Virus record (IMG/VR): IMGVR_UViG_3300046810_000166
Location: 29,689 to 93,688 of that record
Origin: a virus
Reading direction: 5' to 3' (one strand)
DNA: 64,000 nucleotides
The position numbers and the translations under genes were made by a program. Under the pieces are notes generated by a model. That model searched no databases. It was not told the origin of the DNA and worked only from the letters and a program-made list of their open reading frames with translations. Positions 4,530 to 14,264 of this stretch are shown one piece after another; within the stretch, counting starts at the first letter, position 1, and every line of letters starts with the position of its first letter.

Positions 4530-4615
4530 ACGGGTGTTTCTCCTTATGGGTGCGGACTCTGCCTCTATTGCGGGCGAGCCCATGTGGTGGTTTACGGGAC
4601 TTGCCAAGGGTAAAG

Positions 4616-4804
4616 CTATTCAGGCTTCGGGCCCCGGATCTCATGGAAAACCATCGTGCGGCCCGCCAGTTCTTCCTCGGGGATGCCCATCGCCTCGGCT
4701 ATCTGGCGCTTGAGTTTCGCGCCCGCCACGAACTGGCGGCCAGTCAGCAAGAACGGCGGGTCGCTGGGCGTATCATCGGACGGCGGCAGTTTATCGGTGG
4801 CCAC
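4616..4804 (-). CDS. Hypothetical protein
   Basis: Short ORF in operon. Confidence 0.45.
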   Translation of the reverse strand: MATDKLPPSDDTPSDPPFLLTGRQFVAGAKLKRQIAEAMGIPEEELAGRTMVFHEIRGPKPE

Positions 4805-4807
4805 GGC

Positions 4808-5104
4808 TCAGCCTCCCACCTTGTCCAGCGCTGCCTTGGCGCGCTCAACGTCCGCCATCCGGGCGCCGGCGCGCAGTTCATCCATGCGCTCGGCGATCAT
4901 GTAGCGGTTCAGGTGCTGGTCGATGATGGTTTCCTCGGCGTCGATCACGTGCCGGTCCTTCGTCATGGTCCGGGCGGCCGCTGCGATCGCGATCCCGGCG
5001 CACAGCAGGCCCTTGAGCATGCCGAACTCCTCGGGCAGGCCACGCCAGCCGTCAATAATCGCGCGGGTGCGCTCCTCGGCCGTCATCAGCGGTTTCTTCT
5101 TCAT
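4808..5104 (-). CDS. Hypothetical protein
   Basis: AAGGA RBS; coding bias. Confidence 0.55.
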   Translation of the reverse strand: MKKKPLMTAEERTRAIIDGWRGLPEEFGMLKGLLCAGIAIAAAARTMTKDRHVIDAEETIIDQHLNRYMIAERMDELRAGARMADVERAKAALDKVGG

Positions 5105-5956: not shown

Positions 5957-5985
5957 ATCATATAACGCATTGCGGTAATATGCAA
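5957..5985 (-). promoter_or_regulatory. Sigma70 promoter with operator in spacer
   Basis: TTGCAT-17bp-TATGAT; ACGCATTGCGG at 5965-5975. Confidence 0.8.
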
Positions 5986-6185: not shown

Positions 6186-6353
6186 TTACTTTCCCTCAAC
6201 ATCCACGCGATCGGCTACCTTCATCCAGAACAGCTCCACCTCCAGTTCAAGTACGCGGCTCTGCAGCGCGGCCTTGTCCTTGGCGTGCTGGGCCAGCTGC
6301 TTGGCCAGCTCCAGCGGCGTGAGGGTTTGGATGAGGTGATCTACAAGGCTCAT
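6186..6353 (-). CDS. Small coiled-coil hypothetical protein
   Basis: MSLVDHLIQ... with strong codon bias, downstream of the RNA array. Confidence 0.5.
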   Translation of the reverse strand: MSLVDHLIQTLTPLELAKQLAQHAKDKAALQSRVLELEVELFWMKVADRVDVEGK

Positions 6354-6399: not shown

Positions 6400-8930
6400 G
6401 TTTCGCGGCCGCGTACTCCCTGACCTGTCAGCCGGATTACGGTTCACCCACTCGGCTGGATTCTGACCGGGCCTCGACCTTCCTTTCTGCTTGTGGCGCG
6501 AACCTACAGCGGCAGCTGATTCGGTCTATCTGTAGCCAGTCTCCAGCCGAATGGGGCCTCTTTCGAGGCTCCACCGGGGCATGTTGCCTTTACGCGGAAC
6601 TGTTCATGCCCTTCCCCGCGCACAGGCGTGTCGACCCGCCTGCTAGTGATGCCGGGCTATTTTCACCGGCTACGTGTTCGCGCGATCTGATCGCGTCGAT
6701 CTTGACGGCTCGACCAATGCCGAGCGGCTACGATCATGCGGCATCACATAAAGAACGGCTGAGGACGATTCAGCAGCATCCAACCATTCACATCCCCTCA
6801 CAAGGGCGGGAGAGCGTAGGAACTTAATCTACGGGTTCACCGGGTTGGTCGTATAGCTTGGCCCATCTACTTTGTTTCGCACCAGCGTGGTTTTCCGGTC
6901 CCGCGCCTTAGCTACTGATTTCAATTGCCCGTTCTTTATGTGATGGCCGGGCCGTAACCCCCGGCGTTGACTCCCTGCCCTTCTCGGGTTTTCAGGCATC
7001 ACAGCCCTGCATCCTGTTCCGCGTGGCCGGAGTCGAACCGGGCTACCATCACGCTGGGACCGCGCCGCGCTTGCAAACGCATTGCGGTGTTCGGCCGAAC
7101 TTACAAGACGCAGGGCTGTGATGGCCGACTTGCAAGGCCGGCTTTAGCTAGGGGGCCGCAGATCAAAGACTAGAACTTTCCAATCTAGGCTTAGTCACCC
7201 CCTCATCACACAGCTTGACCCTTCGCCGATCGTCACCGGCACGATTGAGGCAGGGACTCGAACCCCGCAATGCCGCCCTTCTGGAGCGCCGCTGTACCAC
7301 TTCGCGTTCTCAATCTAAAGACCAAGCTGTGTGACGGCCGGGTCGCAACCCCGGCGTGAGCTGTCGATGCATGACGCCCATATAGCGTTATCGACAAGAA
7401 CTACTCTGTCATGCATCCGCCACACTGCGGTGGCCGGGGCGCAACTCCCGGCTGAGCTGTAGAGGTGCCGGCAATCTATTGGCGAGATTCCGTGACACAA
7501 ACAACAAAATGGCACCTCACACCACACTGCTGGAAGCTGGAGGCAGTCCCGTCATCGCCGGTCAATCCCGACAAATCCAACTCCCAGCAGTGTGGTGGCT
7601 CGCCCTGCCCGAGCCGGCCGGGCGTTGGCACCCGGCGTCGTTCGATGATCCCACCCGCTCGTCGCGGTCCCTTTTTGGAGTGCCTTGCGGCGCCACCGGG
7701 ATACTGGCGGCTTCTCATTACCACACACATGCACCCGGCCTGCTGTCACAGCCGAATGACGCCTCACAGGCCGCCAGCGAGCAAACCGGCATTCAAGCGC
7801 GACCATCAGCAAGGTGCATGTGTCTGGTGCCGGGTTCTTTCCCCCCGGCGTAAGTCAGGCCAGTAGCTTGCCAGAGCGCCCTTCTCACACCGCGCAACGT
7901 CCATAGCCGCCTCGTTGACGAGGTTCCTCACCTCGATTCCCTGCCGCGCGCGTCACATGCCGGTGACTGTTGAAGCCTTGTGTTCATGCCGCTACTTTTC
8001 CGGCTGGCCACCCACTATTGATCATGCATCATCGTAGGTTCGGCTCCTTGGTAGACATTTACTATGACCGTCTTGAAGGGGCAAAGCCATCCAGTCATCC
8101 ATCACCACTGCTGTTCGGTGCCGCTATTTCCCGGCTGCCAGCCTTATTTCCACCGACTCATGACGCCTCGGCGTGCGTCGCAATATCCCGTCCGGCTTGG
8201 GTCCGAGGCCTATCTACTTACTCCTCGACATTGCACCGTGTTGTTCCGGCTCTCGCCGGCACGTGTAGAGCAACCATCCTTCGTGGTTTCCCACATGGAT
8301 GGAACTGGTTGACCCAGCGCGGCGCTGTCGGGCCCCTACTTTACCTGCGCAGAGATCCATGTTGACCGCTACCGCTTGGCAGTCCCATCCATGTGAGGCC
8401 TCTTGCGAAGCTGCACACGCCCGTCTAATGGCACACTCGGGTCCGCCTAATCGCTTGTTTCCATCGACGCACTGGTCAGGTCGGCCCCCTGAAACATGCC
8501 GCCTGAGCCTAGCCGCCGCCGTTGTAGCCGCGATGCTTTGCTGGTCACCCCTGCCTTTCGTGACAGGAACACGGTTGATGAATCGTGGCGCCACGGTTCC
8601 CGCGTGCTTACATTTACACCACTGACCAGCTGATAAGCCGACTTCCTTCCACGCCCGAGGCTATAGTGCTCGGTGCCTTTCCAGATGATGGCTTGTCAGC
8701 TGGGACTGTTGCCAGTCCAAGCCTAGATCACTCGAAGTCCATGCCTGAATGGGGCATGAAAGTTGGAGCCGATCTGGATGTGTCTTTCATCACCCCCCTG
8801 CAGCACAGGGCCATCGTATGGTGAATAAGCTACGGCCTTGTCGGTGCCCATCCGCACCTACGGCCTGTTCTGCCCTGATAAGCACCTTTGCGCTTATCGG
8901 GACATGCTGCTTTGCTGCTGAACTTCAATG
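6400..8930 (-). ncRNA. Putative polycistronic structured ncRNA array (stem-enclosed cargo modules separated by GCCG..CGGC hairpins)
   Basis: No credible ORF; at least 8 long inverted-repeat stems whose mismatches are mostly G-U pairs on the minus strand; about 9 repeated GCCG..CGGC hairpins; flanked by promoter 8937-8965 and terminator 6011-6038. Confidence 0.7.
7243..7315 (-). tRNA. tRNA-like element (non-canonical anticodon arm, no encoded CCA)
   Basis: Acceptor GATTGAG/CTCAATC, D-arm CGC-GAAGTGGTACA-GCG, T-arm GCGGGG-TTCGAGT-CCCTGC; anticodon arm CGCTC-CAGAA-GGGCG has a 5-nt loop. Confidence 0.55.
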
Positions 8931-8936
8931 GAATTC

Positions 8937-8965
8937 ATCATAGCGGCATTACGCATTGCGTGCAA
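8937..8965 (-). promoter_or_regulatory. Sigma70 promoter with operator, facing into the non-coding array
   Basis: TTGCAC-17bp-TATGAT; ACGCATTGCGT at 8951-8961 overlaps -35 and spacer. Confidence 0.8.
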
Positions 8966-9198
8966 GTCCTTTGTTCAACTTTTTTTGCGGCAATGCATCA
9001 GATGCCGCTCGACCTGCGCCTGCAGCTGGCGCAGCCGCTCGCCCTGCTCCCGTACCTTGTCCATATCCGTCCTCGCAAATAGGTGCCGGGCCCGAAGGCC
9101 CGGCGGGTGGCGCCATCCGCCTATGCCTGCAGCGCTTCCCGTTAAAGCGGTGCAGGCAACGTCGCAACTAGGCGACGCTGGCGCCAGCGGTGAACCAC

Positions 9199-13974: not shown

Positions 13975-14264
13975 TCGTCGCCCCTGCCTACCCTCGCATC
14001 CGCCGCGCCGGCCGTGTGCGCCGCGTCTTCCTGTCGCTGCACCGTGCGCGCCTGATCTGGAATATCACCGGCGCCGGCATCGAGCTGGCATCCCTGCAGC
14101 GCATCATCGACAACGATGTGACCGTGATCTACACCTACCCGCACCTGCGCCCGAAGCTGCTGCCGACGATCGACGCCCGCTACATCGAGCGCGAAGCGAT
14201 CGAGAAGGATCTGGCCAAGTGGAACCGCACCCTCAAGGTGATCGAGCAGGAGCTGCACCAGTGA
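13971..14264 (+). CDS. Hypothetical protein
   Basis: ATGA/GTGA-coupled on both sides. Confidence 0.55.
   Translation: MIVAPAYPRIRRAGRVRRVFLSLHRARLIWNITGAGIELASLQRIIDNDVTVIYTYPHLRPKLLPTIDARYIEREAIEKDLAKWNRTLKVIEQELHQ

Follow-up and report, generated by a model that had tools for sequence, protein, structure and literature searches.

Long gene-free stretches beside phage tRNA genes usually go unannotated. The T4 tRNA region, with its species 1 and 2 RNAs, is a phage polycistronic RNA-gene unit processed by host nucleases, and in E. coli the malE-malF REP and the 5'-terminal stem-loop of ompA act as intercistronic stabilisers against exonucleases or RNase E entry. The ban operon of phage P1 has an untranslated leader (NC_005856, about 68.7-70.2 kb) that contains C1 operators, a 'dicF-like region', tRNA-Asn and tRNA-Thr. 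In T4-type phages, PeSL cassettes consisting of an early promoter and a stem-loop flank protein ORFs (PMC2839356, PMC4122927). In the array analysed here, one gene-free stretch proves to be organised and conserved: RNA modules follow one another in a chain and meet at defined junction elements.

An array of long-stem RNA modules

The window, a stretch of 64,000 nucleotides from an uncultured phage with a 93.7-kb genome, holds a non-coding unit of about 2.9 kb on the minus strand. The array is a chain of long-stem modules, one of which has a tRNA-like core, and its main features are as follows (window coordinates).

8937..8965, minus strand: candidate sigma-70-type promoter read from the sequence (TTGCAC, 17 nt, TATGAT), with a ACGCATTGCG palindrome in the spacer
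6447..8703, minus strand: chain of eight long-stem modules, from repeat calls, folds and compensatory changes relative to the related phages L013 and L017
7242..7315, minus strand: tRNA-like cloverleaf within long stem 7343-7197, with a 7-bp acceptor stem and GG in the D loop
6018..6038, minus strand: intrinsic terminator closing the array unit, seven G-C pairs followed by UUUUUUU

The two related phages were found only through alignment of NinB-like proteins, which in the closer relatives are 81%, 77% and 72% identical; flanking proteins used as single queries retrieved no close relatives. Both L013 and L017 carry homologous arrays that also include a real tRNA-Met, and the fronts of these arrays have the promoter layout of the window (TTGCGC-17-TAAGAT in L013 and TTGTAC-17-TATGAT in L017). 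The candidate promoter at 8965-8937 is missing from a simple promoter scan because its -35 hexamer has only three of six matches. The terminator at 6038-6018 is the sole one listed on the minus strand by the terminator scan.

The eight long stems lie at 8703-8626, 8397-8290, 7828-7720, 7597-7520, 7343-7197, 7128-6992, 6945-6742 and 6555-6447; these coordinates are those of an ungapped repeat call, so that stems 8703-8626, 7343-7197 and 7128-6992 overlap the hairpins that abut them. Comparison with L013 and L017 reveals compensatory changes in the long stems. G.U pairs in these stems number eight on the minus reading versus two on the plus reading, and the array folds with -1275 kcal/mol on the minus strand versus -1118 kcal/mol on the plus strand.

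The tRNA-like cloverleaf has, in addition, GGUUCGAGUCC as its T arm and an 'anticodon' loop of 5 nt. It was not called by ARAGORN and had no Rfam match, and its homologue in L017 has changed acceptor bases that still pair, together with a different loop. A tRNA search found no intact tRNA in the array of the window, the window matched no curated RNA family in Rfam 15, and blastn of the array region against cultured phages returned no similarity. The 3' strand of one long stem could also pair with the 5' strand of the next, giving a tRNA-like three-way junction around the hairpin; this alternative pairing follows from the common CAUCACA/UGUGAUG ends and is therefore no evidence. In bacterial Y RNA, the tRNA-like domain bears its long Ro-binding stem on the anticodon side, and a Ro60 (TROVE) gene lies nearby. 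A Y RNA (YrlA)/Ro60 system was rejected for the array, where the tRNA-like core is attached to the long stem by its acceptor side, and the genome has no TROVE match.

Hairpins at the module boundaries

A family of short hairpins with GCCGGG..CCCGGC stems, together with a weaker sub-type 2 (AGCCGG..AAAUAGC..GGCA), punctuates the array and its upstream edge.

9085..9104, minus strand: further family member, GCCGGGCC-UUCG-GGCCCGGC-ACC; 22.3 bits with the covariance model
8120..8135, minus strand: weak sub-type 2 element, AGCCGGGAAAUAGCGGCA; 4 bp, -5.8 kcal/mol
7988..8004, minus strand: weak sub-type 2 element, AGCCGGAAAAGUAGCGGCA; -4.9 kcal/mol
7824..7896, minus strand: most conserved block of the array, ending in type (a) hairpin UGACUUAC-GCCGGGGGGAAAGAACCCGGC-ACC (7849-7829)
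7617..7636, minus strand: hairpin GCCGGGUG-CCAA-CGCCCGGC; 8 bp including one U.G, -15.1 kcal/mol, z -3.6
7433..7452, minus strand: type (b) hairpin, AGCUCA-GCCGGG-AGUUGCGC-CCCGGC-CACCGCA; repeat families D1-D3
7337..7355, minus strand: type (b) hairpin, AGCUCAC-GCCGGG-GUUGCGA-CCCGGC; abuts long stem 7343-7197
7225..7240, minus strand: further family member, GCCGGU-GACG-AUCGGC; 2 nt past the 3' end of the tRNA-like element
7124..7142, minus strand: type (b) hairpin, AGCUAAA-GCCGGC-CUUGCAA-GUCGGC; abuts long stem 7128-6992, gap 0
6946..6965, minus strand: type (b) hairpin, GAGUCAAC-GCCGGG-GGUUACGG-CCCGGC; abuts long stem 6945-6742
6651..6670, minus strand: sub-type 2 element, AGCCGGUGAAAAUAGCCCGGCAUCAC; one pair is broken in the L013 homologue (14225-14244)

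A preliminary description of this DNA had listed nine of these elements; all nine are present and fold on the minus strand as it described, and two family members (9104-9085 and 7240-7225) had been missed. Six of the nine are strong (7849-7829, 7636-7617, 7452-7433, 7355-7337, 7142-7124 and 6965-6946), with G+C stems of 6-8 bp and energies of -8.1 to -15.1 kcal/mol. The three elements of sub-type 2 (8135-8120, 8004-7988 and 6670-6651), likewise present as described, fold weakly (4-5 bp, -4.9 to -7.2 kcal/mol), and as one pair is broken in the L013 counterpart of 6670-6651, sub-type 2 could represent a sequence motif and not a hairpin.

The strong type is far more frequent than in dinucleotide-shuffled sequence, a comparison that the preliminary description had named as one possible refutation. 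The pattern GCCGGG-N4-12-CCCGGC occurs five times in 6400-8960, against a mean of 0.01 in shuffles, none of 1,000 of which reached five; its density there is 1.95 per kb, as against 0.033 per kb elsewhere in the genome (about 59-fold). The looser GCCGG-N5-13-CCGGC was observed six times in the same interval against 0.12 in shuffles. We scanned the whole genome (E<0.01) with a covariance model built from the hairpin and its flanks. All matches lie within 6940-9116 of the window and on the minus strand; these are the training copies, and the informative part of the scan is that none was found elsewhere in the genome. The block at 7824..7896 gave the best match of the genome, at 46.9 bits.

Scores for the same palindromes were 21-47 bits on the minus strand versus 8-13 bits on the plus strand. 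The hairpin stems contain three G.U pairs and no A.C, and G.U is possible in the RNA sense only; one of these wobble pairs lies in 7142-7124 and can form on the minus strand only. The better minus-strand fold, the G.U bias, the covariance scores and the framing by a promoter-like site and a terminator together are why we read the array as minus-strand RNA.

The stems are almost invariant (GCCGGG/CCCGGC) and show no covariation. The loops of the six strong hairpins (GUUGCGA, CUUGCAA, AGUUGCGC, GGUUACGG, GGGAAAGAA and CCAA) vary, and loop lengths within the array run from 4 to 11 nt. A tRNA T arm pairs 5 bp around a 7-nt UUCRANY loop that includes U54 and A58; the six loop sequences do not fit this consensus, and the T-loop-like character that had been ascribed to them is dropped. 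On the 5' side lies a short linker (..YNAC) that is unpaired in local folds, and on the 3' side a conserved ACC or CAUCAC; the upstream flank is better conserved than the downstream side. C/A-rich sequence follows all nine hairpins and a U tract none of them, so that we rejected intrinsic terminators as an explanation. A simple scan found no promoter-like site beside the hairpins.

The 5' strand of every long stem (eight of eight) is abutted by some short hairpin. The GCCGGG class does so with a gap of 0-1 nt at four or five stems, and the abutments first reported at 6945/6946, 7123/7124, 7336/7337 and 7828/7829 hold (gap 0-1 nt). The general claim that the hairpin directly precedes a long stem stands at these four places and fails at 7636-7617, on the 3' side of which a second hairpin (7615-7598) intervenes before the long stem. 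Hairpins of other sequence occupy the remaining junctions.

8703..8718, minus strand: other-class hairpin GGACUG-GCAA-CAGUCC, abuts long stem 8703-8626
8398..8411, minus strand: hairpin GCUUC-GCAA-GAGGC, abuts long stem 8397-8290, gap 0
7598..7615, minus strand: hairpin GGCUCG-GGCAGGG-CGAGCC, abuts long stem 7597-7520
6556..6569, minus strand: hairpin GCCUC-GAAA-GAGGC, abuts long stem 6555-6447, gap 0

In L017, compensatory changes preserve the pairing of two stem-abutting hairpins. The homologue of 8718-8703 is CGGUUG-GCAA-CAGCCG, its pairs kept through two double changes, and that of 7615-7598 is GGCUUG..CGAGCC; at the site of 8411-8398, L017 has GGCUGC-GAAA-GCGGCC, likewise with gap 0. The GCCGGG type is thus one among several classes of boundary hairpin.

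Related arrays and unrelated carriers

The block at 7824..7896 is 89% identical to L013 and 93% to L017. This type (a) hairpin with its upstream block is followed by a different module in each phage: tRNA-Met in L013, where the hairpin lies 9 nt ahead of the genuine tRNA, a short module in L017 and a long stem in the window. Indels of module size (about 130 and 260 nt) between the phages have as their edges hairpin copies or CAYCACAC; the weak element 8135-8120 is one border of a module of about 130 nt that is absent from L017. Elsewhere in L017, the homologue of 7636-7617 (at 5040) retains the stem and has another loop, a type (a)-like hairpin at 4571-4593 aligns with 8004-7988, tandem duplicated copies with partial flank occur at 4724 and 4828, and a tRNA-like module has a GCCGG-CGCAA-CCGGC hairpin where its anticodon arm would be. 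Enrichment of the hairpin family in L013 is only weak. These comparisons bear out the proposal that the hairpins are conserved elements of unit boundaries: the GCCGGG..CCCGGC elements are real, enriched, strand-specific, conserved, placed at boundaries 0-1 nt before stems, and border indels.

The family extends beyond the array. Hairpin 9104-9085 precedes the array promoter by a short distance and belongs to the 5' untranslated region of a conserved ORF of 29 codons (9064-8975); in L013 a GCCGGG hairpin (12251) precedes the homologous small ORF. Two unrelated contigs (L143 and L145) have the same flank and hairpin as 6965-6946. A first hairpin pattern scan returned solitary hairpins only, which are probably unrelated. 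The type (a) motif, (G)UGACUU(A)C-GCCGGG-NGGAGAG(C)AA-CCCGGC-ACC, was found in about 25 unrelated viral contigs, about once per contig, and in two Gemmata MAG contigs; its 5' flank is conserved over 8 nt across unrelated phages. By eye, it lies 19-37 nt 5' of a start codon in about ten carrier loci, and its orientation is that of neighbouring genes identified by PHROG in six of six cases. In other phages (L138 and L139) the stem-loop of the array hairpins, with a U tract, serves as a plain terminator.

The type (a) motif matched no Rfam family, was not found among cultured phages, and its sequence was not found in the literature searched. Searched with Rfam, the related and carrier loci gave matches to tRNA models alone, and at true tRNAs alone. 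No neighbour protein within about 7 kb is common to 22 carrier loci, or to the carriers and this genome, and a partner protein encoded beside the motif was accordingly rejected; so was a link to tRNA, which is absent near the motif at most carrier loci. The occurrence of the same stem in the 5' untranslated region of a small ORF, and of type (a) in many unrelated contigs that have no common neighbour protein, argues for the general-purpose nature of the hairpin. Strand-specific and distributed among unrelated uncultured phages, the type (a) motif is a candidate for a new RNA element acting in cis on phage gene expression.

Interpretation and comparison with known systems

Our interpretation, held tentatively and at somewhat less than an even chance, is that the hairpins are passive structural punctuation, serving as RNA boundary caps or insulators of a processed modular array and as recombination junctions. 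Host nucleases would cut the precursor (in the linker by an RNase E-type cut, at the tRNA-like modules by RNase P, and within the long stems perhaps by RNase III) and leave the G+C hairpin as a terminal stem-loop, which would block exonucleases and 5'-end-dependent entry of RNase E. Stacking of the hairpin on the long stem would keep neighbouring modules from mispairing, and at the DNA level the repeated junction (hairpin and CAYCACA) would be a site of module gain, loss and exchange. The cuts, the nucleases and the protective effect are parts that we infer within this passive-cap interpretation. Classical RNase E sites are A+U-rich; the linkers are not, which counts against RNase E-type cutting. 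The main RNase E signature is a U two nucleotides downstream of the cut (PMC5222698), and the linkers carry a U able to take this position. The weak enrichment of the family in L013 also speaks against the passive cap. The near-invariance of the stems is explained no worse by a specific recognition factor, or by recent duplication, than by a passive cap, and the conserved 8-nt 5' flank of type (a) in unrelated phages likewise points to something sequence-specific.

Such recognition could come from a protein dedicated to dicing or packaging the array, with the hairpin and its conserved flanks as its specific binding or cutting site; candidates would be an endoribonuclease, Cas6/Csy4-like or of another kind, an operator binder resembling a coat protein, or a host factor. 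The invariant stem, the conserved flanks (UGACUUAC, AGCUCAC and GAGUCAAC on the 5' side, ACC or CAUCAC on the 3' side), the fixed position at the foot of long stems and the recurrence of the same motif of about 30 nt in about 25 unrelated contigs all suit this proposal. We nevertheless regard it as unlikely, given that no protein within about 7 kb of the motif is common to the 22 carrier loci, that loop length and sequence vary within one array, that other long stems are abutted by hairpins of quite different sequence and that the genome encodes no TROVE/Ro protein. In a more elaborate and improbable version, the hairpin with its flanks (..YNAC-GCCGGG..CCCGGC-CAYCACA/ACC) would be the recognition site of a dedicated system that cuts the precursor into small RNAs and would also be the attachment point for RNA cassettes, (G)UGACUU(A)C-GCCGGGUGGAGAGCAACCCGGC-ACC being its solitary form in other phages; if true, non-coding RNA cargo would be handled by a logic like that of integrons or CRISPR. 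The hairpins might instead act mainly as DNA, as repeated palindromic junctions, possibly small selfish palindromes, for cassette recombination, with no need of an RNA function of their own. Module indels bounded by hairpin copies, the tandem copies in L017 and identical flank-plus-hairpin units in unrelated genomes without common genes are all expected on these terms, and the PeSL cassettes provide a precedent of regulatory stem-loops mediating modular shuffling (PMC2839356). Against this stand the strand asymmetry, the hairpins always being on the transcribed strand (six of six beside identified genes, and all array copies), the G.U pairs formed in the RNA sense only and the compensatory changes that keep hairpins of other sequence paired at the same junctions, indicating selection on the RNA fold; a mainly DNA-level role is distinctly unlikely.

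A former tRNA cluster could also have left T or anticodon arms of decayed genes behind as these hairpins. The tRNA-like cloverleaf and T-arm-like motifs of the array, the real tRNAs of its relatives, the L017 hairpin at an anticodon-arm position, the anticodon-loop pattern Y/N-U-NNN-R-N of CUUGCAA and GUUGCGA and the ability of the strand 3' of the hairpin to pair with the preceding UGUGAUG in acceptor-stem fashion would agree with such an origin. We give it little credence, as the stems have 6-8 bp and not 5, the loops lack U54/A58 of the T loop and spread over 4-9 nt, neither ARAGORN nor Rfam reports a tRNA at any hairpin, and these hairpins are also found among ordinary protein genes, remote from any tRNA. 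Action on transcription elongation (put/nut-like antitermination, pausing or attenuation, aiding RNA polymerase across the long untranslated unit) appears very improbable. In a lambda nut site, boxA (YGCUCUUA) is followed by a stem of 5 bp capped by a GNRA-like loop of 5 nt, and an operon has one or two such sites. An untranslated transcript of 2.9 kb has to be protected from Rho, the preceding AGCUCA(C) is faintly boxA-like, the loops of sub-type 2 and type (a) are purine-rich like boxB, and the stem-loop of L138 and L139 with its U tract is a plain terminator. However, the unit has at least nine copies, unlike nut or put, none of them with a U tract 3' of the stem; the loops are not of the 5-nt GNRA-like boxB kind; AGCUCAC, AGCUAAA and UGACUUAC match boxA only in part, the consensus being absent; and the array is so densely structured that Rho loading is already disfavoured. 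We found nothing specific in favour of the put-like antiterminator suggested in the preliminary description, and lambda-type nut sites were rejected.

Other candidates were also set aside. GAUGAG-like strings near the conserved block recall hammerhead or other ribozymes, but there is neither a GAAA core nor an Rfam match. The UGA in the type (a) flank, considered as a selenocysteine signal, is out of frame with identified upstream genes, and loop indels of 1-2 nt speak against coding. A CsrA/RsmA sponge would use GGA in the loops, which is present in one array hairpin only.

If the hairpins are processing or stability signals, one promoter would yield many small structured RNAs, including tRNA look-alikes, and the hairpins would offer a sequence handle for finding such arrays. 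A CRISPR-repeat-like role had been proposed; like CRISPR repeats, the hairpins are palindromic elements between dissimilar inserts in one transcript, but the comparison fails on regular spacing and repeat identity, as the spacing is irregular (96, 184, 213 and 391 nt), copies are 66-81% alike and loop lengths differ, from 4 to 9 nt. REP and other stabiliser hairpins resemble the array hairpins in being short, G+C-rich, free of a U tract and located between the units of a single transcript. Their setting differs: they are found between protein genes or as hundreds of copies in the host, whereas the array hairpins separate non-coding modules, have conserved flanks and stack directly on long stems, and any stabilising effect here is putative. 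As in PeSL cassettes, a repeated stem-loop flanks exchangeable modules and marks breakpoints of insertion, deletion or replacement; unlike them, the array hairpins have no adjoining promoter-like site in a simple scan, and the exchangeable units here are RNA modules. The array is related to the tRNA gene clusters of phages, and its own relatives carry tRNA-Met, but most of its modules are long-stem RNAs or tRNA look-alikes that lack a usable anticodon loop. The P1 ban leader has no sequence similarity to the array, its hairpins are not of the GCCGGG type, and it has tRNAs where the window array has no intact one; the roles of the P1 elements are likewise putative. It shares with the array a repressor-type operator in the promoter, a heavily folded, gene-free transcript of 1.5-3 kb in which tRNAs are mixed with long stems and, in a single MFE fold, one short hairpin 1 nt 5' of a long stem.

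The array and its transcription unit

The source record is a complete viral genome of 93.7 kb (G+C ~65%) with direct terminal repeats, of which the window takes bases 29689–93688; the virus is myovirus-like and encodes a tail sheath, a major head protein and baseplate proteins. No ORF with coding-like codon-position composition was found in ~6400–8960, the stretch that holds the hairpins. Genes on both sides of it lie on the minus strand, and those upstream of the array serve replication and recombination (a NinB-like protein, a resolvase and a replication initiator).

Features of the array and its borders (window coordinates)
8975–9064, minus: conserved 29-codon ORF (MDKVREQGERL...), directly upstream of the array promoter; counterpart at ~12290–12375 in L013, a locus of a related phage
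8965–8937, minus: promoter-like site TTGCAC-17-TATGAT; two related phages have this layout ahead of their homologous arrays
8948–8960: palindrome ACGCATTGCG, within the array promoter's spacer
7315–7242, minus: tRNA-like cloverleaf inside a long stem; homologue at 5078–5171 in L017, a locus of the other related phage
7074–7088: third copy of palindrome ACGCATTGCG, inside module 7128–6992, without a promoter
6186–6353, minus: 55-codon ORF with coiled-coil-like sequence, after the last module and ahead of the terminator, within the array's transcription unit
6038–6018, minus: strong terminator, closing the ~2.9-kb unit opened by the promoter-like site at 8965–8937
5962–5976: palindrome ACGCATTGCG, in the spacer of the next downstream promoter (~5985–5950)

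A simple scan passed over the promoter-like site on account of its weak −35 hexamer. This hexamer lies 9 nt downstream of the stop codon of the 29-codon ORF. The palindrome is probably a repressor operator, and the 55-codon ORF has no PHROG match.

Hairpins at the module boundaries

All nine GCCG..CGGC hairpins claimed in the preliminary description (6651–8135) were found at their positions, and two further family members, at 9104–9085 and 7240–7225, had been overlooked. Six of the nine have G+C stems of 6–8 bp (−8 to −15 kcal/mol); the other three, which follow AGCCGG..AAAUAGC..GGCA, are weak (−5 to −7 kcal/mol). Their loops, which had been described as T-loop-like, do not match that form. 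In 6400–8960 there are five instances of GCCGGG-N4-12-CCCGGC, compared with a mean of 0.01 in 1,000 dinucleotide shuffles, and the density of this pattern is 59 times lower in the rest of the genome. A covariance model built from hairpin plus flanks gave no match with E < 0.01 outside 6940–9116 across the whole genome.

The hairpins and stems belong to the minus-strand transcript and are features of the RNA. The same model scores far higher on the minus than on the plus strand for identical palindromes, and the array folds at −1275 kcal/mol on the minus strand versus −1118 kcal/mol on the plus strand. Non-Watson–Crick positions in the eight long stems read as eight G·U pairs on the minus strand versus two on the plus, and the hairpin stems add three G·U pairs and no A·C. 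In the relatives, double changes in the long stems leave pairing intact; the stems of the GCCGGG hairpins show no covariation in comparison with L013 and L017.

The four abutments originally reported between hairpins and long stems are correct, and a short hairpin in fact abuts the 5′ strand of all eight long stems, with a gap of 0–1 nt. The GCCGGG hairpin is the commonest abutting form in this phage, and its GCCGG..CCGGC pattern is only mildly enriched in L013. Abutting hairpins of other classes are GGACUG-GCAA-CAGUCC, GCUUC-GCAA-GAGGC, GGCUCG..CGAGCC and GCCUC-GAAA-GAGGC, two of which keep pairing in L017 with changed bases (CGGUUG-GCAA-CAGCCG and GGCUGC-GAAA-GCGGCC). What is conserved is therefore an architecture: an unpaired linker, then a short, stable hairpin that stacks on the base of a long stem. 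Some junction hairpins carry GCAA tetraloops (8703–8718, 8398–8411), complementary over 4–5 nt to the UUGC of type (b) hairpin loops (7124–7142, 7337–7355, 7433–7452), so that loop–loop contacts between modules are conceivable.

Related arrays and their tRNA modules

Single flanking proteins used as queries found no relatives; alignment of NinB-like proteins led to two loci: L013, on a viral contig of 72 kb, and L017, on a metagenome contig of 5 kb. In each, the syntenic position is taken up by a stretch that lacks genes and is densely folded, with patchy, collinear similarity to the window's array (65–93%). A genuine tRNA-Met (61 bits) is present in both, which makes the unit a relative of phage tRNA clusters, one whose modules are for the most part not tRNAs. 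L013 holds a second, odd tRNA.

Nowhere is the array better conserved than in a ~70-nt block at 7896–7824 (89% identity with L013, 93% with L017), ending in the hairpin UGACUUAC-GCCGGGGGGAAAGAACCCGGC. What follows it differs: a long stem in the window, the tRNA-Met 9 nt on in L013, and, in L017, a short module plus another copy of the hairpin. At two places the window and L017 differ by the size of a module, and these differences have hairpin copies or the shared CAYCACAC stem start at their borders.

The cloverleaf at 7315–7242 has a 7-bp acceptor stem, a D-loop GG, a canonical T arm and A8, with an 'anticodon' loop of 5 nt and no CCA. In its L017 homologue the acceptor bases are changed and still pair, and the 'anticodon' loop is different (6 nt). 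The cloverleaf looks like a tRNA mimic unable to decode. ARAGORN also called tRNAs with four-base anticodons (gcac, tcag; 8-nt anticodon loops) at L013 14566–14639 and, in a further contig, L047 2295–2372 (38 and 49 bits with the Rfam tRNA model), which could be quadruplet-decoding or disabled. Its sole call in the whole genome was an over-long (92-nt) tRNA-Gly(tcc) candidate outside the window (genome C1 11257–11348). In L084 (721–820 and 895–950), an uncultured phage contig, a long stem encloses a CCGG-UUCGACU-CCGG T-arm-like core resembling window 7128–6992, and GUGACUUGC, which varies the flank motif, is also present; together these suggest a wider family of such RNA arrays.

Role and reach of the hairpin

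The proposal that the hairpins are boundary signals is partly supported. They are RNA-level, strand-specific and conserved, and they stand at module boundaries and indel borders; the suggested put-like antiterminator lacks a defining feature of nut/put sites. We propose that host nucleases would cut the array precursor, leaving the hairpins as terminal stem-loops that would block exonucleases and 5′-end-dependent RNase E entry. The hairpins may also shield the folding of adjacent modules from one another, as the stem ends of these modules (CAUCACA/UGUGAUG) could cross-pair without them. In Salmonella, RNase E cuts are chiefly marked by a U two nucleotides downstream (PMC5222698); the unpaired linkers, which are not A+U-rich, hold a U that could fall at this position. 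The invariant stem and conserved flanks make a sequence-specific reader of the hairpins, whether protein or nuclease, a serious rival to this protective role. Another rival, in which the hairpins act purely at the DNA level as junctions for recombination, would accord with the indels and has a precedent in the stem-loops of the PeSL cassettes of T4-type phages (PMC2839356), but is at odds with the strand asymmetry and the compensatory changes.

Exact-pattern scans placed the ~33-nt type (a) motif, the class of hairpin 7849–7829, (G)UGACUU(A)C-GCCGGG-N-GGAGAG(C)AA-CCCGGC-ACC, in ~25 further viral contigs, usually once each (for example L103, L107, L113, L118, L121 and L122), and in two Gemmata MAG contigs (L091 and L095). 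It is not coding sequence, because its loops carry indels of 1–2 nt. The motif sits between ordinary genes (ParB/methyltransferase, RecT, sliding clamp, DNA polymerase, primase, head/portal), shares the orientation of identified neighbouring genes in six of six cases, and, in ~10 loci inspected by eye, lies 19–37 nt ahead of a start codon that has a ribosome-binding site. Its carriers have no neighbour gene in common, and tRNAs are mostly absent nearby. It matched no Rfam family, and was found neither in 50,697 cultured phage records nor as text in the literature searched. Type (b)-like hairpins also occur singly elsewhere, two with an identical GAGUCAAC flank; some are followed by a U tract, which makes them plain terminators. 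Immediately upstream of the array, the GCCGGG-type hairpin at 9104–9085 lies in the 5′ untranslated region of the conserved 29-codon ORF. The hairpin is thus a general-purpose transcript element, one that the array uses repeatedly.

Among known systems, the CRISPR-repeat-like role initially suggested lacks a defining feature of CRISPR; terminator and T-arm readings of the array hairpins, and a Y-RNA reading, were set aside on the same kind of ground. The nearest annotated analogue of the array is found in phage P1, in the ban operon leader, where a repressor operator is followed by ~1.5 kb of gene-free, folded RNA that includes tRNAs and a 'dicF-like region'; the two are alike in architecture and unrelated in sequence.
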